From the NCBI GenBank assembly GCA_051382305.1, contig JBBCAV010000071.1, positions 1 through 10,050 on the forward strand: DNA of 10,050 nucleotides, written 5' to 3'. Numbering within the stretch: position 1 is the stretch's first letter; every line of letters starts with the position of its first letter. The notes beneath the pieces are model-generated. The model did no database searches and was not told where the DNA came from. It worked only from the letters and a program-made list of their open reading frames with translations. This document shows, one piece after another, positions 1-10,050 of the stretch. The stretch comes from Bdellovibrionota bacterium FG-2. GTDB taxonomy: Bacteria > Bdellovibrionota > UBA1018. Position numbers and translations under genes: made by a program.

Positions 1-12
1 CTATTCTCATCT

Positions 13-474
13 GTGGCTCCTTGTTTTTTAATTGGTACCGTGGAGTATTCCACGGGGGAGCCACTCAATCAAATTTCAACGGACTTCAGCATAATCTCTT
101 TGGTCGTCGATGACATGAAGAGTATGCGTTCGATGATCGCAAAAGCCTTAAGGGAAATTGGATTTACCGATATTGCCGAAGCAGAAGGTGGAGCGAACGC
201 GTGGACGCTCTTAACGCAAGCGTCTCCCCCTTTTGGGTTGATACTTTCTGACTGGAATATGCCTATAAGCACTGGGATTGACCTGCTTAAATCCGTACGC
301 GCTGACTCGCGGTTTAAGAAAACACCTTTCATTATGGTTACCGCTGAAAATGAAGCCTGCAAGGTGATCGAAGCGGTGAAATCGGGCGCGACTAATTTTC
401 TCGTTAAGCCCCTTACTAAGGAGTGGCTCCGAACTAAATTGGAAGACGTTCACAAGCAAACCATGAAGGAATAG
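13..474 (+). CDS. Single-domain CheY-like response regulator (receiver only)
   Basis: LVVDD acidic pocket, SDWNMP phospho-acceptor Asp, MVTAE Thr, LVKP Lys; no output domain. Start uncertain (GTG13 or GTG40; no ATG after the GGGGAG at 55-60). Confidence 0.9.
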   Translation: MAPCFLIGTVEYSTGEPLNQISTDFSIISLVVDDMKSMRSMIAKALREIGFTDIAEAEGGANAWTLLTQASPPFGLILSDWNMPISTGIDLLKSVRADSRFKKTPFIMVTAENEACKVIEAVKSGATNFLVKPLTKEWLRTKLEDVHKQTMKE

Positions 475-3039: not shown

Positions 3040-4185
3040 TTAGTGACTCCGGGAGAGCCAAACCAAAGTTTCAAAGTGCATCGTGTGGGGAAACATATCG
3101 AAAAGTTGAACCCTCTTTAGCGTAAAGTCCCGTGACAGTGATTTAAGATCCAGCGCCAGAGTTTGAATGGAGCAACTGGAGTAGAGCAAATGCTTAGGCA
3201 ATTGCTTCTGAATAAGGACAAGCGATTCGCCCAGCCCCCTTCGAGGAGGGTTGGCCAAAATCAGATCGGATTTAAAAGCAGCTAATTCGTTAGAGATTTT
3301 AGCAGCGTCCAGTGCTTTAAAAGTTAGATGTTGGAATCCTTGTTCGCGAGCGCTTAGATTCGCGATATTGACAGCGTCGGAATTAATTTCGATCCCCAAT
3401 ATTTCAGGTGCACTTCCCGCCGCGAAAAAACTAAATGCGCCCTGGCCGCAGAAAAGATCAAGGACTTTGGTTGGCCGCGCATCCCTGATCCAGTTTGCGG
3501 CGGTTTGATACAGCTGCCCCGCCATCTCAGAATGAGTTTGAACAAACGCGCGCGGCGCAAGCTTGAGTCGGATGGCGCCTATTTGATGATCAATAAAGGC
3601 ATTTTTGGTTAAATAGATTTCTTCAGGGCCTTCTAAAATCGCATGCGGAATCGGCTGAATATTGACCGAAACGCAGATAAGCTCCGGAAACTGGTTTTGC
3701 AGAACCGGCAGTAATTTCTCAATCCCGGAAACGCACGCTTTTGAGCGCAAAATGAACCGAAGATACATCTGATCGGTGCGGGGCGAATAAAATGCAATCA
3801 GGCCTTTGCACTCGCCCTTGCGCTCCTTAATTCGATACGGGGTGAGCTGAAACTCTCGAATCAGGGTCGGCATCGCACGGATGAGTTGATTTAGTTTTGG
3901 ATGATGAATCGGGCAAGCCAGAAGTTCTCGTCCGTGGTCCAAATCTGACTCCCCAAGCAGTCCGACCACGGGTGCGTCCACCGAACCTGTAACGAACATC
4001 TTGGCGCGATTTCGAAAACCTTGCAGGGGCGATAAAACAGAAGGGGCCAGGGGAGTGTCCGGGAAAAAGCTCAAAGCCTCTCGAATCGTTTGCTCTTTGG
4101 TTTGAATTTGCGAGGCATAGTCGCGCTCAAGCCATTCGCATGAACGACAGATCGCTTGATTATAATAAGAGCAAAAGCTCAGCAC
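3040..4185 (-). CDS. rlmC: 23S rRNA (uracil-C5)-methyltransferase, RlmC/RumB type
   Basis: N-terminal CSYYNQAICRSC Fe-S cysteines with no TRAM domain; FRNRAKM; F.QT; VLDLFCGQG SAM motif; ANPPR; YSSC catalytic Cys; DMFPHTMHFE. 381 aa, in line with RlmC length. Confidence 0.88.
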   Translation of the reverse strand: MLSFCSYYNQAICRSCEWLERDYASQIQTKEQTIREALSFFPDTPLAPSVLSPLQGFRNRAKMFVTGSVDAPVVGLLGESDLDHGRELLACPIHHPKLNQLIRAMPTLIREFQLTPYRIKERKGECKGLIAFYSPRTDQMYLRFILRSKACVSGIEKLLPVLQNQFPELICVSVNIQPIPHAILEGPEEIYLTKNAFIDHQIGAIRLKLAPRAFVQTHSEMAGQLYQTAANWIRDARPTKVLDLFCGQGAFSFFAAGSAPEILGIEINSDAVNIANLSAREQGFQHLTFKALDAAKISNELAAFKSDLILANPPRRGLGESLVLIQKQLPKHLLYSSCSIQTLALDLKSLSRDFTLKRVQLFDMFPHTMHFETLVWLSRSH

Positions 4186-4187
4186 AC

Positions 4188-4559
4188 TCAGATTCCTACG
4201 CAGGAGTCGAGTCGCTCATTGCAGCCGTTTTTTGCAGCACATTCTCTGCAGCTTTTGCCGGTGGGCGATCCCATGCAAGGCAACCAACAGTGTTTCTTGC
4301 CACAGGCAGCGACCTCGCCCCAGCAATCAGCACAAGCAGGAGTAAGTCCAAGCTCTTCGGACATGCATTTGGAAGTGCATTCCTTGCCGCCCAGACATTT
4401 TTTGCCGCAAACCAATTCTTTTGCTTCCATGGCGGGCTTCCCAACAGCAGCGTCTTGTTCGTTTGTGCAGGCGCCTTCGTTAGCAAAAGCAGGTTGGCTC
4501 GCGATGGAAAAACTGAGGCAGAAAGTGAAGCAGACTACACGAAGAAATGGGGGTTTCAT
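4188..4559 (-). CDS. Small secreted cysteine-rich protein
   Basis: Signal-peptide-like N-terminus ending PAFA; mature region rich in CxxxC/CxxC pairs. Stops 2 nt before the rlmC GTG, so probably co-transcribed. Confidence 0.75.
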   Translation of the reverse strand: MKPPFLRVVCFTFCLSFSIASQPAFANEGACTNEQDAAVGKPAMEAKELVCGKKCLGGKECTSKCMSEELGLTPACADCWGEVAACGKKHCWLPCMGSPTGKSCRECAAKNGCNERLDSCVGI

Positions 4560-4607
4560 GGGGGTAATCGATCATGGACCATGGGCCGAGTAAAGAAAAA
4601 TGCCCTC

Positions 4608-4636
4608 TTAATGCGATGCGTTTTATTTGATATAGT
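4608..4636 (+). promoter_or_regulatory. Putative sigma70 promoter with extended -10
   Basis: TTAATG (4608-4613), 17 bp, TATAGT (4631-4636) preceded by TGa; AGGTG RBS (4644-4648) before ATG 4655. Confidence 0.45.
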
Positions 4637-4654
4637 CCCGCCCAGGTGATTTTT

Positions 4655-4858
4655 ATGAAACGACAAATTCAAAAAAAAACGACATTCTTCTGGGCCGTTC
4701 TGAGTTTAGTGGCCACCACCCTGCTACAGATACATGAATCCCAGGCGTTTAGCGGAGCGAGGCAAGCCGCAGACGACAAAGCGATCGACAGAGCCATTAG
4801 GCGCACAGAATGTCGTGGCCCCCAAGAATATCCACAAATATGGCACTGTTCTCTTTGA
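4655..4858 (+). CDS. Small exported protein, possibly the 5' part of a frameshifted pseudogene
   Basis: RBS AGGTG; clear Sec-like signal MKRQIQKKTTFFWAVLSLVATTLLQIHESQA|F. A protein-like sequence continues in the +1 frame to 4931. Confidence 0.5.
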   Translation: MKRQIQKKTTFFWAVLSLVATTLLQIHESQAFSGARQAADDKAIDRAIRRTECRGPQEYPQIWHCSL

Positions 4859-4992
4859 TTCAAGCGACCGCGATGGCGTTCCAGAAGTGTTGTCAACCAT
4901 AGAGAACGGGATCAAATCCGGCAATCGGTAGGATGCTTTTCTTCGGGCTACCCAATAACTCGCCTCGGGCAAACTTCACTCAAACTTGAGAA

Positions 4993-5011
4993 ACTCAAGT
5001 CCCACTTGAGT
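4993..5011 (-). terminator. Hairpin, possible terminator downstream of the original tRNA-Pro 3' end
   Basis: ACTCAAGT-ccc-ACTTGAGT perfect 8-bp inverted repeat; only a weak U tract (TTCT) follows on the minus strand. Confidence 0.35.
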
Positions 5012-5129
5012 CACGCCCACCAAACCCAATACACAACCAGGCCTGAGACTCGCTTTTAATATCGCGAGCTTATATCTATTATTATGTAATGAAAGTGTAA
5101 TTAACTGATTTGAATTTTGGAACTTAATA

Positions 5130-5174
5130 TGGTCGGGATGACGTGATTCAAACACGCGACCTCTTCGTCCCGAA
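5130..5174 (-). pseudogene. 3' half of tRNA-Pro(CGG); att-site remnant
   Basis: Minus strand reads TTCGGGA (anticodon loop) CGAAG AGGTC GCGTG TTTGAAT CACGT CATCCCG ACCA. The 5' half is absent: TCTCC lies where CTTCG is needed, with no D arm or 5' acceptor strand. T-loop is TTTGAAT instead of TTCGAAT. Confidence 0.9.
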
Positions 5175-5261
5175 GGAGAGCCCCAAAAACGCTGTTAAAC
5201 CCTGATAATCACGAGGAATCGGTGTTTTCAAAACCCGACTTTCTCGTGCAAAAGTCAGCGG

Positions 5262-5328
5262 AACTCGCAGAAAAAATCCGAATGATAATGCAACTCGCAG
5301 AAGGAGCGTGTGCCGCATATGCGCCGCA
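5262..5328 (+). repeat. Direct repeats next to att; candidate integrase arm-type/excisionase sites
   Basis: AACTCGCAGAA at 5262-5272 and 5292-5302; TGTGCCGCA (5309-5317) and TGCGCCGCA (5320-5328) at 11-bp period. Confidence 0.55.
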
Positions 5329-5421
5329 CGGATTCGAGCCTACGAGTGAAATTATCAAGTCCACTTCCAAATCTGGAAGGAGGACGCCTAAGTGAATACC
5401 TACAAATAATCATCTTTAAAA

Positions 5422-5548
5422 CAAAAAAGCCCAGGGTTGATGCCCCAGGCTTTTTAAACTTTGCTGTTGTCAGCTTTTTATCTTGGCGGATTTGAAGCTG
5501 GTCTTTCACACCTTAACCGGAACTGCTTTCGCAGATCCTGGCGGGTAC
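5422..5548 (-). ncRNA. Predicted counter-transcribed antisense RNA in the parA-rep leader
   Basis: Minus-strand promoter at 5555-5584; GAAA-tetraloop hairpin 5519-5538; CGCCAA-loop hairpin 5471-5500; intrinsic terminator 5423-5451. Ends approximate. Confidence 0.65.
5423..5455 (-). terminator. Rho-independent terminator (minus strand; possibly weak on plus)
   Basis: Minus-strand RNA AGCCUGGGG-CAUCAA-CCCUGGGCU then UUUUUGUUUU. Fully paired via two G-U pairs only on the minus strand. Confidence 0.8.
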
Positions 5549-5554
5549 TTCTCT

Positions 5555-5584
5555 ATTCTTAATGAGAGGTGCCTTCCCTGTCAA
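5555..5584 (-). promoter_or_regulatory. Sigma70 promoter for the antisense RNA
   Basis: Perfect TTGACA (5584-5579), 18 bp, AAGAAT (5560-5555; 4/6 to TATAAT). Confidence 0.6.
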
Positions 5585-5601
5585 CTTGAATGGAGAAGAA
5601 A

Positions 5602-6441
5602 ATGGAAAATCAAAAAGCGGTAATCATAGCCGTGGCCACCCAAAAAGGGGGCGTCGGAAAAACAACGACAACCGTCAATCTTGCGCAAGCCCTATCCTTA
5701 CTAGGTGAAACCGTCCTGGTCGTAGATCTCGATCCCCAGGGCAACGCTACGCAAGGTCTCGGGATCAAACTTGATCAGGTGACTGCTTCAATTGCGGATC
5801 TGCTCCGTGACAAAACGTTTCCTGAGCAAAGTGCGATTTACAAAGGGCCGGGCCTCGACTTGATCCCTGCAACACCGCTGCTTGCACGAATGGGGCGCGA
5901 ACTTGTTGGAATCACAAACGGTGAAATGCGACTCGCTCTACGGTTGCGAGCTTTATCACTTCGCTACTCGGTCATTCTAATTGACACTCCCCCATCAGCG
6001 AGCACACTGATGAACTCGTCTTTGAACGCGGCAAACAAGCTGATTGTGCCGGTCGACTCAGGCTTCTACGCAATGATGGGAATCAGGGAGTTGCTCGCGG
6101 AGGTTGAGGAGATTCGCGCAGCTTCGAATCCCGGTTTAGCAACCCTAGGTTTCTTACTTACGATAATAGATCAAACCCGTATTGCTGATGAGGTTTGCCA
6201 GGGTCTCATATCGAACTTCGGAGAGGAGGTATTTGAGACCAAGATCCATCGCAACGTGAAGCTCAAAGAAGCGCCCGCTTTCGGAAGAACGATCTTTCAT
6301 CACGCCCCCCACTCCCAAGGCGCAACCGACTACATGAGTTTAGCACAGGAGGTTTTGCAAAGATTGAAGTCAGAGCACACAGGGGCGACAAGTCCCAAGC
6401 GTGATATACGCTTAAGCCTTGTCGAAGGGGGCGCACAATGA
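5602..6441 (+). CDS. parA: ParA/Soj-family Walker-type partition ATPase
   Basis: QKGGVGKTTT deviant Walker A, VVDLDPQGNAT, ILIDTPPS Walker B, LKEAPAFG. ATG 5602 preferred over 5590 because GGAG (5592-5595) lies 6 nt upstream. Confidence 0.95.
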   Translation: MENQKAVIIAVATQKGGVGKTTTTVNLAQALSLLGETVLVVDLDPQGNATQGLGIKLDQVTASIADLLRDKTFPEQSAIYKGPGLDLIPATPLLARMGRELVGITNGEMRLALRLRALSLRYSVILIDTPPSASTLMNSSLNAANKLIVPVDSGFYAMMGIRELLAEVEEIRAASNPGLATLGFLLTIIDQTRIADEVCQGLISNFGEEVFETKIHRNVKLKEAPAFGRTIFHHAPHSQGATDYMSLAQEVLQRLKSEHTGATSPKRDIRLSLVEGGAQ

Positions 6442-7727
6442 GTGAGCGCAAAGAGCTAAAGCGAGTGATTGCGGACTTTCCATTTAAAAAACCCCTCCCT
6501 ATCAAGCGAAGTTCGGTCGAGTTGAAAGCTCCGGTTGAGGAGGCACCCGACCCCCAAACGGCCTTGATCAAATCGATTATAGAGGAAAGTCTGTCCACAA
6601 CGGACACTCTTTCAAGCCCACAGTGTTCAGAAATGACAGTATCCACCGCGAACAGTGTGCAAGCTAAACCCTCCTCTGAACACACCACAGTATCCAAATT
6701 GAACACTGTGCCAGATGCGATTGCCTCACGCCCTGTGGAAAGGCTTCAAGGGAATTTCACGCAAGTTCCAAACACGCTTTTGCGAACAGCGGGCATGTTC
6801 GAGGACCCGTTTGACTTCATGATCTACCTGCTCTTGTATTCGTACTCCTACGGGTTTGGCAGAGACACGGCCAGCATGAGTCAATCTCAGATCGAGAACT
6901 TTGCAGGAGTTTCAAAGAATCGGGTTAAGCGATCCCTGGATCGTTTGATCAAGCAACGGTGGATAAAGCGCATCGGGGAATTCGAGCGTTCACGGGTTTC
7001 CCGAAAGTGGCGCGTCTTCGCGCCTGAGGAGCGCAATCCGGGACCCAAGAAGTCAAACAGCACAGTGGCCAGCGCGCACACTGTGCAAAACGCACAGAGT
7101 CCGCAGCAGACACCTACAGTGTTCGCGGCGGACACCGTCACACTATCCACAACGGATACGTTCAAAGAAAGGGGATCCAAAAATAGTTTTTCAAACAAAG
7201 CTCTCTCTGCAATTTCAGAAAACTTGAACTTGCTGGAGTATTTCGACGGACTCAAGCCAATGCGAAAGAGAGAGAGCGAACTCAAGGCTTTTGAAGAACT
7301 CCAGGGGGATTTTTCGGATGTTGAAATTGCTAATTGCCTGTCCCATCTTCAATGCAAAGGCCTCCCAGGAAGGGACGCATGTCACTCTCCGATGACGTAC
7401 CTTGCTCGGGCTATGGGAAATGTTTTGCCGGTTGTGAAATCAAACCAGGAAGCCCAGCGAAGGACTGCCGAAAACGCCGCAAAGATTGAACTCCAAAAAC
7501 AGAAAGATGCCGCGATTGAGGCTCGGGAGAGGAGCGAGTGGGAGGAAAAAGAGCGTGCGTTCGTAGAAGCGTTTCCAGAACAGCGTGAGCAGGAGGAAGC
7601 CGTTGTGGGCTTTTGCGTGCAAAACGGGTTTTTCACGACAAAAGGTCAGGCTGCGCGGATTTTCGCGATTGGGGCTTGGAGCCGGGGGATGAATCGCGAA
7701 GAGAGCGAGGTTGTTATGGTAGGTTAA
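6438..7727 (+). CDS. Putative replication initiator with winged HTH (phage O/replisome-organizer-like)
   Basis: NFTQVPNTLL..IYLLLYSYSYGF..SMSQSQIENFAGVSKNRVKRSLDRLIKQRWI is a typical initiator wHTH; C-terminal SPMTYL segment; ATGA overlap with parA; internal iterons. Confidence 0.75.
   Translation: MSERKELKRVIADFPFKKPLPIKRSSVELKAPVEEAPDPQTALIKSIIEESLSTTDTLSSPQCSEMTVSTANSVQAKPSSEHTTVSKLNTVPDAIASRPVERLQGNFTQVPNTLLRTAGMFEDPFDFMIYLLLYSYSYGFGRDTASMSQSQIENFAGVSKNRVKRSLDRLIKQRWIKRIGEFERSRVSRKWRVFAPEERNPGPKKSNSTVASAHTVQNAQSPQQTPTVFAADTVTLSTTDTFKERGSKNSFSNKALSAISENLNLLEYFDGLKPMRKRESELKAFEELQGDFSDVEIANCLSHLQCKGLPGRDACHSPMTYLARAMGNVLPVVKSNQEAQRRTAENAAKIELQKQKDAAIEARERSEWEEKERAFVEAFPEQREQEEAVVGFCVQNGFFTTKGQAARIFAIGAWSRGMNREESEVVMVG
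6592..6705. repeat. Iteron cluster 1 (palindromic TRTYC-N5-GRACA)
   Basis: TGTCC-ACAAC-GGACA 6592; TGTTC-AGAAA-TGACA 6624; TATCC-ACCGC-GAACA 6640; TATCC-AAATT-GAACA 6691. Confidence 0.75.
7066..7158. repeat. Iteron cluster 2; probable replication origin
   Basis: TGGCC-AGCGC-GCACA 7066; TGTGC-AAAAC-GCACA 7082; AGTCC-GCAGC-AGACA 7098; TGTTC-GCGGC-GGACA 7120; TATCC-ACAAC-GGATA 7144. An AT-rich tract follows (~7179-7230). Confidence 0.75.
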
Positions 7728-7816
7728 TCACAAACCAGTGTAACGGAGCGGTCATTTCACGAGTTGCAACATCATGAAATCACGGACCATTCCAGTTTCT
7801 GTTTTTCGACAATCAG

Positions 7817-7842: not shown

Positions 7843-8112
7843 ATGGAGAAAGAAAAAGAAATAGCTCACAGCCCACAGTTAAACGAATCAACTCGCACGC
7901 CTCTTCACGATCAGTTTGATTCGGCAAAGCCAATTTATCCAGATAGCCAGTCGGCGATAGAGGCCCTTGGCTTTAAATTAGAACAGTTGGCCGCGAGCGT
8001 CGGCAAAAGTAGGGAAACCCTTTTGCTGGAAGCTCACACGGCATCCCATTATCAGCCGCAGCATCGGACCGCTTTGAATCTTGAGCGCCAAATCAACTTG
8101 CTGAAATCATGA
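7843..8112 (+). CDS. Small protein, putative antitoxin
   Basis: 89 aa with a good RBS; ATGA overlap with the next gene. LEQLAASVGKSRETLL loosely recalls the LxxFExxYGxSSxxF partners of DUF6516 proteins. Confidence 0.55.
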   Translation: MEKEKEIAHSPQLNESTRTPLHDQFDSAKPIYPDSQSAIEALGFKLEQLAASVGKSRETLLLEAHTASHYQPQHRTALNLERQINLLKS

Positions 8113-8573
8113 AACACGATTGGAACACGCTGGACGACTACTTGTCGGTTCATCATCGTATTCTCCATTTTTATGGAAAATACATGGAGACCCCAAAGGC
8201 TGCTTACCAGGTAACTCAGTTAACCCCCAGGTTTTATACCTTGGAATGCGCGGGGATCATTTTTCGTACTTATCTTTCAAATCGCGTTCGCGTAGATATT
8301 TACAAGGAAATCTTGGTCGATGATTCAAATCCAAGACGGCGACGCGCTCGCACTATAGGCTATAGTTACAATGCCAATACGCCCCAAGGGGCAAATCTAA
8401 TTCGATACGACAGTCCCGATCCACTCAGCACACTTGGGACAAATTCACCCCATCACCACTCGTATCATCACAAGCACGACGAGAGCGTTTCTCCCTCAAG
8501 AATTATTCGAATTGAAGATGACGAATATCCGCATGTTGGTGAGTTCTTTGACGAGATTCTTAGTCGCTTTTGA
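8109..8573 (+). CDS. DUF6516/TumE-like putative toxin
   Basis: YSY..LIRYD..PHH..YHHKH..P...EFFDEI matches the DUF6516 signature (RYD..H..HHxH) as I recall it. Confidence 0.65.
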   Translation: MKHDWNTLDDYLSVHHRILHFYGKYMETPKAAYQVTQLTPRFYTLECAGIIFRTYLSNRVRVDIYKEILVDDSNPRRRRARTIGYSYNANTPQGANLIRYDSPDPLSTLGTNSPHHHSYHHKHDESVSPSRIIRIEDDEYPHVGEFFDEILSRF

Positions 8574-8699: not shown

Positions 8700-9818
8700 A
8701 TGAGCGAGAAAGTACTATTTATTGGCCTGGATGTCGATGACAAAGCTTTTCATGGAGCAGTCCTAGTCTCGAATCTTGGAGAGCTAATCGAGTTTAAATG
8801 CAGGCCTCATGTCGATGGGCTGAGCAAGAAACTTAAGGAACTCCAAGCCCGATTTCCTGACCATAAAATTCGAATTTGTTACGAAGCCACCTATATCGGC
8901 TTCACCCTTCAACGAGACCTTGCGAAAAAGGGCTTTCATTGTGATGTCATTGCTCCGGGGAGCATCCCAAGGACCTATGGTAACCAAGTCAAAACCGATC
9001 GTGTGGATGCCGGCAAGCTGGCTCAGTATTACTGCTCTGGCCTGCTCGCAATCGTTACCCCGCCCGACGAACAAACCGAGAAGGACCGCGATTTATTGCG
9101 ATCCAGAGCATTCGTAATGGGACAACTCTCCGAGGTGAGAACTCACATTCACTCACTGCTTCGGCGTGCCGGCAAGAACTTCAAGGTTGAAACGGGTAGC
9201 AAATCTCACTGGACTAAACACCACTTGTGCTGGATTGAACGAGTAATTGCGGACTCTTCTGGGTGTTTCAGATCCAATCTCGATCTGCTCTACAAACAAA
9301 TGAAATCTCTAAATGTCACACTGGCTGAATACGATGCGGCGGTGGATGAACTCGCGGCTAGCCCTCGTTACGTGAACCAGGTGCAGGCACTCACGTGCTA
9401 CCGCGGGGTGAAGAATCTTTTTGCCATGGTTATGATCACTGAGATCGGCAATATCAAACGATTCCCGCACCCCAGGAAACTCGTCTCGTGGATGGGAATG
9501 GACATTCGGGAATACTCCTCGGGAGGAAAGCAAAATCGCTTCGGCATCACAGGTCATGGCAATCGATATCTTCGTACCGCCTTTGTTGAGGCAAACCAGA
9601 AGAGCTTTCGAAGCCCGGTGTCCGGTAGTGATGTGCGGCTACGAAGACAAAAGCTCCCGCCGCCTCTGGTTGAAATCGCCGAGCGCTGCCAAAAGCGAAT
9701 CTACAAAAAAGGGAACCGATTGCTTCATGCAGGAAAGCACCCCAATAAAGTCAAAGTTGCCTGCGCGCGAGAAATGGTGGGATTCGTCTGGGAATCCCTA
9801 AACAAAGTTGCAGCATGA
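8700..9818 (+). CDS. IS110-family DEDD transposase/recombinase
   Basis: FIGLDVD, CYEAT, KTDRVDA RuvC-like DEDD; C-terminal WMGM..EYSSGG..GIT..GNRYLR with the catalytic Ser; ACARE; AAGGAG RBS. Confidence 0.97.
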   Translation: MSEKVLFIGLDVDDKAFHGAVLVSNLGELIEFKCRPHVDGLSKKLKELQARFPDHKIRICYEATYIGFTLQRDLAKKGFHCDVIAPGSIPRTYGNQVKTDRVDAGKLAQYYCSGLLAIVTPPDEQTEKDRDLLRSRAFVMGQLSEVRTHIHSLLRRAGKNFKVETGSKSHWTKHHLCWIERVIADSSGCFRSNLDLLYKQMKSLNVTLAEYDAAVDELAASPRYVNQVQALTCYRGVKNLFAMVMITEIGNIKRFPHPRKLVSWMGMDIREYSSGGKQNRFGITGHGNRYLRTAFVEANQKSFRSPVSGSDVRLRRQKLPPPLVEIAERCQKRIYKKGNRLLHAGKHPNKVKVACAREMVGFVWESLNKVAA

Positions 9819-9851: not shown

Positions 9852-10035
9852 TTTCACTTTCAGCGTGAAAAAGCGGGTCTTTTGAAAGGGTAAGACAGAC
9901 TCAACGGGAGCCCACCGGAATTGCCCTTAGTCTAAAGCGACTGTGGATAGATTGTGGATAACCGTTACGGACAAATCTTAATGCGTTAGCCAGTACGCGA
10001 ATACGAGGTTGTAAGTCAAAGGTCGAACCTGACTT
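9852..10035 (+). ncRNA. Candidate IS110 bridge/seek RNA
   Basis: Non-coding and hairpin-dense: TTTCAC/GTGAAA 9852-9870; GTCTT/AAGAC 9877-9896; AACGG/CCGTT 9903-9966 closing a large loop; TGCGT/ACGCG 9982-9999; AAGTCA..GGTcgaACC..TGACTT 10013-10035. Confidence 0.6.
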
Positions 10036-10050
10036 TCAAAATGATCCATG

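Follow-up and report, generated by a model that had tools for sequence, protein, structure and literature searches.

The stretch analysed here (hereafter the window) is a complete contig of 10,050 bp (C71; JBBCAV010000071.1) of Bdellovibrionota bacterium FG-2, a binned genome of 433 contigs that is 85% complete and 4.4% contaminated. Its plus strand carries a gene for a ParA/MinD-type ATPase (parA, 5602–6441) followed by a rep-like gene for a lambda O-like winged-helix initiator of 429 aa (6438–7727), and the analysis concerns the leader of about 190 nt in front of parA, within which a cis-antisense RNA of about 129 nt is predicted on the minus strand (5420–5548). The start of parA was placed by aligning 27 homologous leaders and is likely the ATG at 5602, 6 nt past a GGAG; the list of open reading frames (ORFs) starts the gene at 5590. 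ParA was identified by matches to Pfam AAA_31 (1e-45 class match) and CbiA and to PHROG 164 (ParA-like, 7.8e-59). An earlier note on this DNA, made from the letters alone, had called the second gene rep, which agrees with a match of its N-terminal domain to PHROG 678 ('replication initiation O-like', 8.6e-9); Pfam Phage_rep_O and HTH_36 matched weakly, with Phage_rep_O above the cutoff in one homolog. The ATGA through which the note had proposed coupling of the two genes is likewise present, the parA stop and the rep start overlapping as ATGA at 6438–6441 and by 4 or 8 nt in seven homolog loci (ORF tables). No parB-like gene lies between parA and rep in the window.

Homologous leaders were collected by DNA search, pattern search, and covariance model. 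The DNA search found the leader family in 15 of 75 genomes, including the window's own, whose assembly holds three further, diverged copies (79–84% identity). The exact core pattern occurred in 15 stretches of a 185,579-species collection, titled Oligoflexia (7), Bdellovibrionota (4), Bacteriovoracaceae (3), and 'bacterium' (1), and a slightly looser core pattern led to 7 metagenome contigs. After duplicate removal, 28 unique leaders were kept, one was dropped as cut by a contig end, and the remaining 27, henceforth called seed leaders, make up alignment A2. A covariance model was built from A2 and searched against genomes of the same order (E ≤ 0.001), with matches in 48 of 116 genomes and 9 of 12 families. 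The model-based alignment of 46 matches (A3) is fitted to the model and hence favours the structure. Subtracting duplicates and one weak reverse-strand match (31.8 bits) from A3 left 42 unique leaders, of which 15 are not seed leaders; the pair-change counts given for A3 still include the weak match (43 distinct rows). In an initial MAFFT alignment (A1), one stem-loop (SL2, see below) had its 3′ arm out of place and was consequently missed by RNAalifold, and A2 and A3 were used instead. Strand bias was scored from cells in which a G.U pair on one strand corresponds to A-C on the opposite strand, where cells are sequences and not independent events. A distant DNA search with 5200–7727 against a plasmid collection returned no homologous leader, only 7 records that each covered 3–6% of the query inside parA-like genes.

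The putative antisense promoter consists of a −35 hexamer TTGACA (5579–5584, minus) and, after an 18-nt spacer, a −10 hexamer AAGAAT (5555–5560, minus), as the earlier note had read them; in the promoter scan, TTGACA-18-AAGAAT (5584–5555) reached 10 of 12 consensus matches. Taken alone, promoter-like sites were near chance (2 found vs 1.2 expected in 1.2 kb), and this one is raised above chance because it is conserved in the 42 unique homologous leaders. It was the only promoter-like site common to 27/27 seed leaders when both strands were scanned, always with the 18-nt spacer, and TTGAC[A/G]-17/18-nAnnnT was found on the minus strand in 40 of the 42 leaders, distant ones included. The two remaining leaders carry TTGACT with GAGAAT and TTGACA-17-TTAAAT. 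The −35 reads TTGACA in 39 leaders, TTGACG in 1, and TTGACT in 1, with one more placed by eye. Read on the plus strand, GTCAA is invariant (42/42) and T5579 is kept in 40/42; the four columns before GTCAA vary, and GTCAA is part of no conserved sense-strand helix. At a distance of 17–18 nt, the −10 is AAGAAT in 32 leaders and another nAnnnT variant in 8. Position 2 (A) and position 6 (T) of the hexamer, the equivalents of −11A and −7T, are invariant in all 42 leaders, and the remaining positions drift (AAGAAT, AACAAT, AAAGAT, GAAAAT, AAAAAT, TAGATT). As judged from the alignments, this pattern of invariance is the mark of a working sigma-70 promoter, and constraints on the sense strand alone would explain it poorly.

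The predicted RNA would end at hairpin T, a putative intrinsic terminator on the minus strand (5423–5455; stem 5429–5436/5443–5450, loop 5437–5442, T-run 5428–5423), for which the terminator scan gave a stem of 13 pairs at 5455–5424 followed by TTTTTTGTTTT on the minus strand. Its full pairing on the minus strand only, claimed earlier, holds in the window, where C-A and A-C mismatches on the plus strand are G.U pairs on the minus strand. Terminator-like sites, too, were near chance when taken alone (2 found vs 1.5 expected). Pairs of hairpin T were changed on both sides in 6/8 cases in A2 and 7/8 in A3, and among the seed leaders 36 cells were G.U on the minus strand and 0 on the plus strand, the varying positions running G-C, G.U, A-U when read on the minus strand. 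The eight bases past T contain on average 6.2 T on the minus vs 3.8 on the plus strand (42 leaders), and a TTTTT run stands on the minus strand in 40/42 leaders (table read by eye); some copies, the window included, also carry TTTTT past T on the plus strand. The start of the antisense RNA was placed 7 nt past the −10, at the G opposite C5548, which is conserved in 41/42 leaders, and its end in the T-run. The 131-mer of the minus strand folds into three hairpins (−43.6 kcal/mol, z −3.7, none of 200 shuffles folding as well), and the plus strand folds nearly as well (−43.0 kcal/mol, z −2.4, 2/200 shuffles). No conserved minus-strand ORF was found in the antisense region among the homologs, and indels are not multiples of three. 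A small minus-strand protein was rejected as a candidate: the 84-aa ORF at 5255–5509 passes through the terminator, and frames differ among homologs.

The part of the leader proposed for RNA–RNA recognition is SL2 (5471–5500, considered on both strands from folds and covariation). The stem-loop that the earlier note had seen here is present, with a lower stem CAGCTT/AAGCTG (5471–5476 and 5495–5500), an internal loop above it, an upper stem ATC/GAT (5480–5482/5489–5491), and a hexaloop (5483–5488) that reads TTGGCG on the plus and CGCCAA on the minus strand. Its stems covary, all 7 lower-stem and all 4 upper-stem pairs being changed on both sides in A3. The loop is a hexaloop in each of the 42 leaders, begins with TT in 41, and is TTGGCG in 21, including distant leaders with different stems. 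The U-turn motif YUNR was found in the loop on the plus strand in 38/42 leaders vs 6/42 on the minus strand. CGCCAA itself occurs 5 times in the window, where 7.9 occurrences are expected. In one isolate-labelled genome (G064), four co-resident copies carry four loops (TTAGCA, TTATCA, TTGGCG, and TTGGCA), which hints at an effect on copy number or incompatibility and would fit specificity in trans.

Covariation in homologous leaders had been proposed as a check, and the hairpins covary in both alignments. Over T, SL2, SL3, and SL4, 89.6% of the cells of A2 were paired, vs 37–49% with partners slid by 1–3 columns, and 28/40 pairs were changed on both sides, vs 7–11 when slid; none of 500 shuffles reached the observed values. 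The corresponding figures for A3 were 90.4% and 36/40 (slid: 36–47% and 15–21). Of the features on whose conservation the earlier note had staked its proposal, the −35 and the terminator hairpin are conserved across the 42 unique leaders, and the TTGGCG loop is kept in 21 of them. SL3 (5517–5541) is selected as a structure in the plus-strand leader and is present as its complement in the predicted antisense RNA; in A3, 11/11 of its pairs were changed on both sides and 94% of cells were paired, and a U.G pair at one position was retained in 19/27 seed leaders. The SL3 loop is TTTC on the plus and GAAA on the minus strand of the window. The earlier note had taken this GAAA (hairpin at 5519–5538) as a signal of the minus strand, which is right for the window's copy and specific to it; SL3 loops differ widely in other leaders, and GAAA was rejected as a strand marker, not being conserved among the 42. 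SL4 (5544–5553 with 5564–5573, plus strand) has its 5′ foot (5544–5548) under the predicted antisense RNA and the antisense −10 in its loop; its cells were paired in 92% (A2) and 90% (A3), with 5/10 and 7/10 pairs changed on both sides.

Counted over the 42 leaders, G.U cells favoured the plus strand in the SL2 upper stem (27 vs 8 on the minus strand), SL3 (48 vs 8), and SL4 (57 vs 9), and were even in the SL2 lower stem (10 vs 10). This bias in the SL2 upper stem, SL3, and SL4 implies a structured sense RNA, and the same plus-strand G.U pairs indirectly suggest that the parA mRNA spans SL2. Hairpin T is best read as a minus-strand terminator, and SL2 to SL4 as shaped for the sense RNA.

Downstream of the region covered by the antisense RNA, RNAalifold pairs an anti-Shine-Dalgarno (anti-SD) sequence CTCYATTC (5551–5558, extended to 5548) with the Shine-Dalgarno (SD) region GAATGGAG (5588–5595, extended to 5598) on the plus strand, and the minimum-energy fold of the window agrees. 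In A2, 98.6% of the cells of this helix were paired, five pairs being invariant and three varying only between C-G and U.G, and U.G cells numbered 14 on the plus vs 0 on the minus strand, a bias that marks this helix, like SL3 and SL4, as selected in the sense mRNA. A duplex of at least 7 bp is formed in 41/42 leaders, at a mean of −12.7 kcal/mol vs −10.9 on the complementary strand. Compensatory changes were seen in the distant leaders L071, L076, L080, and L086, for example CTCCATTT with AAATGGAG, CTTCATCT with AGATGGAG, and TCTTCATTC with GAATGAAGA. Bases of the anti-SD lie in the 5′ arm and loop of SL4, so that SL4 cannot coexist with the anti-SD:SD helix. The predicted antisense RNA, with its putative 5′ end at 5548, would cover the first five bases of SL4, and when the antisense-covered part was barred from pairing, the predicted mean unpaired probability of GGAG fell from 0.24 to 0.055 (27 leaders).

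A co-oriented tRNA or tmRNA gene lies 220–350 nt upstream in 22/41 homolog loci (14/20 and 8/21), the tRNA types being Asn, Ala, Cys, His, Gln, Arg, and Asp; the module is therefore taken as the tRNA-side end of an integrating island. As a whole, positions 5420–5600 are probably a sense/antisense control module in front of the translationally coupled parA-rep operon of a tRNA/tmRNA-inserting island in one order of Bdellovibrionota. The conservation described above gives good support to its core, a short counter-transcript directed at the parA-rep leader, and the existence of the antisense transcription unit is held more firmly than the mechanism involving SL4 and the anti-SD. Of the earlier proposal of such a counter-transcript, the promoter, the terminator, SL2, and the ATGA stood as conserved features; the GAAA loop did not. 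In the mechanism envisaged, the antisense RNA would be made constitutively and would meet the parA leader as this is being transcribed, contact being made between the SL2 loops (UUGGCG with its U-turn motif in the mRNA, CGCCAA in the antisense RNA). The duplex would extend to the antisense 5′ end at about 5548 and thereby remove the foot of SL4, which would free the anti-SD and close the parA ribosome-binding site. ParA would fall, and the lambda-O-like Rep would fall with it through the ATGA overlap, so that the element's genes for replication and partition would be under negative feedback, amounting to control of copy number or to silencing.

Several observations weigh against this account. 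The antisense transcript and its function are inferred from sequence, the −10 is weak (4/6 matches) and stands at an 18-nt spacing, and the strand asymmetry of hairpin T is seen only among the 27 seed leaders, which are closely related; among the 15 distant leaders, nearly all cells of T are Watson-Crick, and G.U cells number 5 on the minus vs 6 on the plus strand. For the common columns, the consensus fold is better on the plus strand (−35.8 kcal/mol) than on the minus strand (−29.6 kcal/mol), where of SL2 the lower stem alone forms and the CGCCAA region sits in a large open loop. Selection on structure is thus evident mainly in the mRNA, and in the antisense RNA only at the terminator. Of the four copies that the window's assembly holds, three have the TTGGCG loop and would cross-talk if they resided in one cell, the assembly being a bin with the contamination given above. 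In the window itself, the SD is paired in both modelled states (unpaired probability 0.00 and 0.00), since the 11-bp anti-SD:SD helix dominates, and the switch is not supported thermodynamically for this copy. With the SD closed in both states, the switch would have to be kinetic, SL4 presumably forming first during transcription. Finally, the scan of the 27 seed leaders gave no conserved promoter on the plus strand from T to the start codon, which places the origin of the sense transcript upstream of T and requires the transcript to pass the hairpin.

Candidate sense promoters upstream of T were picked by eye: TCGACA-16-nAnnTT in most homologs, and in the window TGAAATTAT at 5347–5355 and TTCAAA-17-AAAAGT near 5227–5255. 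Just upstream of hairpin T, the plus strand of the window carries an SD-like AGGAGG (5378–5383) and a GTG-initiated mini-ORF encoding VNTYK (5392–5409, stop included). An SD with a start and an ORF of 1–9 codons ending 7–29 nt before T was called by script in 23/27 seed leaders (2 uncalled, and 2 of the calls looking spurious) and in 13/15 distant leaders, and three uncalled leaders have one by eye. The mini-ORFs often contain or end in Pro-Pro (KPP-stop, MPPP, MDPP, MPPK), KPP-stop occurring with synonymous codon variation, and in five leaders an ATG is directly followed by a stop. Ribosomes may stall on the mini-ORF, which would then serve as a leader controlling read-through of T. In most homologs (e.g., L026, L008, L022), a strongly conserved block lies about 100–250 nt upstream of T, between the tRNA gene and the mini-ORF, and comprises a possible promoter (TCGACA-16-nAnnTT) set within a 7-bp inverted repeat, TTCCCGA/TCGGGAA, and followed by three CCTAY repeats at 11-bp spacing. 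This block could be an operator with a promoter, iterons, or integrase arm sites. The window is without it and instead has AACTCGCAGAA twice (5262–5272 and 5292–5302) and a near-palindrome at about 5311–5330.

Two other explanations of the same features, each rather unlikely in our estimate, place the function in cis or on one strand. If the promoter and terminator worked by transcriptional interference, RNA polymerase, bound at 5584–5548 or firing from there, would occupy the region of the parA ribosome-binding site and collide with sense transcription, pairing of the RNAs would be unimportant, and hairpin T would do no more than halt the transcript before the attachment site and the tRNA gene. 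The layout is compatible with this, as the promoter overlaps the SD-proximal leader with its −35 only 4 nt from the SD region, T stands just inside the island end beside a tRNA/tmRNA gene in 22/41 loci, and the structures common to the leaders are selected on the plus strand and not in the antisense RNA. However, a conserved U-turn hexaloop and covarying stems within the overlap are needed by RNA–RNA recognition and not by interference, the foot of SL4 coincides exactly with the predicted antisense 5′ end, as would fit a structural switch, and the different loop sequences of the copies that share one genome are consistent with specificity in trans. If the leader were instead a plus-strand cis-regulatory element only, i.e., an SD-sequestering 5′ untranslated region answering to a protein, a ligand, temperature, or translation of the mini-ORF, T would be a (bidirectional) terminator or attenuator of an upstream transcript and the minus-strand promoter a by-product of plus-strand constraints. 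The G.U bias toward the plus strand in the SL2 upper stem, SL3, SL4, and the anti-SD:SD helix speaks for it, as do the position of the −10 inside the anti-SD and the SL4 loop, where it is constrained anyway, the SD and the often Pro-Pro-containing mini-ORF that ends a few nt before T, and the TTTTT past T on the plus strand of some copies including the window. It fails to account for GTCAA, which is kept in 42/42 leaders though no conserved plus-strand helix includes it and the columns on either side vary, or for the variation of the −10, which always preserves nAnnnT even where the anti-SD changes; moreover, the 17–18-nt spacing is fixed despite common indels elsewhere, and the A-run before T (the U-run on the minus strand) is far better kept than the T-run on the plus strand.

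A reading of the inverted repeats as DNA sites for proteins (operators of ParA, Rep, or a repressor, iterons, or a hairpin of a transfer or replication origin) rather than as RNA is very improbable. The region does adjoin the island end and a replication gene, and site-like repeats occur upstream of T, namely the CCTAC series spaced by 11 bp with the 7-bp inverted repeat in most homologs and the direct repeats in the window, yet all five helices keep their pairing through changes on both sides while the sequences drift, and a strong strand bias of G.U vs A-C cannot come from sites in double-stranded DNA. The sense/antisense module can also be extended to a three-layer gate of mini-ORF, hairpin T, and an antisense-set switch between SL4 and anti-SD:SD, a type not described for any replicon; we regard this extension as doubtful. 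A ribosome stalled on the Pro-Pro mini-ORF, which ends 4–10 nt before T, would decide on read-through of T by the sense RNA; the strand-asymmetric T, fully paired in the antisense RNA only, would stop that RNA firmly and the sense RNA conditionally; and the antisense RNA would set the switch. With the module at most about 350 nt from the tRNA-side end, sense transcripts might reach it only across the opposite end of the island, once this has been excised and circularised, and parA-rep would then be expressed only in the excised form.

In its proposed function, the RNA would work like the CopA and Inc antisense RNAs, and tests for membership in the Inc, CopA, repABC, and attenuation families were negative. 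The Rfam search suggested earlier gave no family match: Rfam 15, scanned with the window at E ≤ 10, had no match in 5400–5610, and a scan of 20 homolog loci at the gathering thresholds returned only tRNA and tmRNA. CopT of plasmid R1 carries the same UUGGCG hexamer, and CopA is a counter-transcript with stem-loops and a Rho-independent terminator, Rep being controlled by coupling to an upstream frame. As predicted, the present system would share with CopA/CopT the stem-looped counter-transcript, the terminator, the U-turn kissing loop, and translational coupling. It differs in showing no sequence or covariance-model similarity (Rfam scan), in having the full parA as the upstream frame, and in the proposed change from SL4 to anti-SD:SD some 40 nt downstream of the duplex, where R1 uses occlusion of a leader-peptide start. 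In the activator pseudoknot of the I-complex plasmids, the target loop pairs with a downstream CGCCAA near the rep ribosome-binding site; a pseudoknot of this Inc type was rejected here, no CGCCAA being present on the plus strand between 5489 and 8085. The label 'CopA/Inc-type' in the earlier note was apt for the UUGGCG loop, found in 21/42 leaders, and with neither an Rfam match nor a pseudoknot partner it describes an analogy and not membership. In attenuation of the pT181/pIP501 type, an antisense-dependent terminator lies in the sense leader before the regulated gene; this was rejected as well, as 5456–5602 has no plus-strand terminator-like site and SL4 is followed by TTCCCTG, not by a U-run. 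The antisense RNA of repABC operons lies between repB and repC and acts on repC.

According to the passages of PMC10724649 on I-complex plasmids, binding of their RNAs starts by loop–loop kissing, with a role for the interior loop, the antisense RNAs of IncK measure 61 and 60 nt, and the target loop carries 5′-rUUGGCG-3′ (Asano et al. 1998, title as cited there). The predicted RNA resembles the Inc RNA/RNAI of IncI-alpha/IncB, as portrayed in those passages, in being a short cis-antisense RNA on the leader of a replication operon with a UUGGCG target loop and kissing. At about 129 nt with three predicted hairpins, it is larger than the I-complex RNAs, which have about 60–70 nt and one hairpin; further, no leader peptide lies in the antisense-covered part, parA is the first regulated gene, and the carrier is a Bdellovibrionota integrating island. 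A YUNR U-turn loop in one partner is given as general for loop–loop antisense systems in PMC4485353, which also mentions the antisense RNA of Rhizobium etli p42d, a repABC plasmid, and describes RNAII of pMV158 as blocking initiator translation in the two-gene copG-repB operon, RNAII being a single hairpin that has no U-turn loop and binds by its 5′ tail. As in repABC, a ParA-type ATPase and an initiator share one operon under a small antisense RNA, here predicted upstream of parA, with a parA/rep overlap of 4 nt, in another lineage, and with no Rfam match. Like pMV158 RNAII, as outlined in that paper, the RNA would act against a two-gene operon with an initiator, and it differs in the conserved U-turn partner loop and in a site upstream of the first gene.

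In the open-access literature searched, supplementary files being outside the scope, no account of this leader antisense system of Bdellovibrionota was found. If the reading is true, an unrecorded and well-conserved RNA family (48/116 genomes of one order, no Rfam match) would join the classic antisense controls, and antisense control would extend to Bdellovibrionota and to tRNA-integrating islands with defence cargo (BREX in one relative). The UUGGCG U-turn loop in an unrelated lineage would then represent convergence on one RNA recognition device, and a covariance model and a mutation set would be at hand for studying how an integrated element checks its replication and partition genes.

Further observations concern the island and its surroundings. 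At 5127–5177 the window repeats, over 51 nt and with 94% identity, the 3′ portion of a tRNA-Pro(CGG) gene whose full version lies on contig C166 (5031–5108, complement); the fragment looks like an attachment-site repeat of an integrated element, and its orientation is opposite to that of the tRNA genes preceding the leader in most relatives. A paralogous copy in the same assembly (G000 contig C27, about 3337–7741) is 82% identical over parA-rep and has its parA split by an insertion of about 4.4 kb with ORFs of 350, 610, and 228 aa; a tRNA-Ala gene precedes the leader of that copy. The relative L056 (G064:C52:52500-72000) is a tmRNA-adjacent island in which leader, parA, and rep are followed by a BREX-type set of BrxA, a BrxC-like protein, a PglX-like (Eco57I/MmeI-type) methylase, PglZ, and BrxL. 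Its rep gene contains about 18 tandem copies of an 18-nt unit (L056:2297-3127), which either encode a linker of Pro/Thr/Val/Gln-rich hexapeptides or are iteron-like repeats at the DNA level; in the rep gene of the window, a 22-nt unit is repeated only twice (7094–7136).

Elsewhere in the window, an 815-aa ORF on the minus strand (506–2953) has no Pfam family and a weak MXAN_6577-like cysteine-rich C-terminal match (E 3e-5, below cutoff), a 154-aa ORF (8109–8573) has a weak TumE-like match below the Pfam cutoff, and an IS110-family transposase is encoded downstream of rep (8700–9818). Both ends of the window are exact repeats of other contig ends (window 1–99 repeating ends of C356, C392, and C162, and window 9924–10,050 repeating ends of C166 and C388), i.e., assembly-graph branch points, and the true neighbours of the window are therefore ambiguous. 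C166 and C388, which share the 127 nt of its right end, encode a Phd/ParE pair, a histidine kinase, a solute-binding protein, and an HU-like protein, with no integrase on either contig. The Phd/YefM antitoxin and ParE toxin genes lie at 412–1004 of L054 (G000:C166), a contig that may adjoin the right end of the window.

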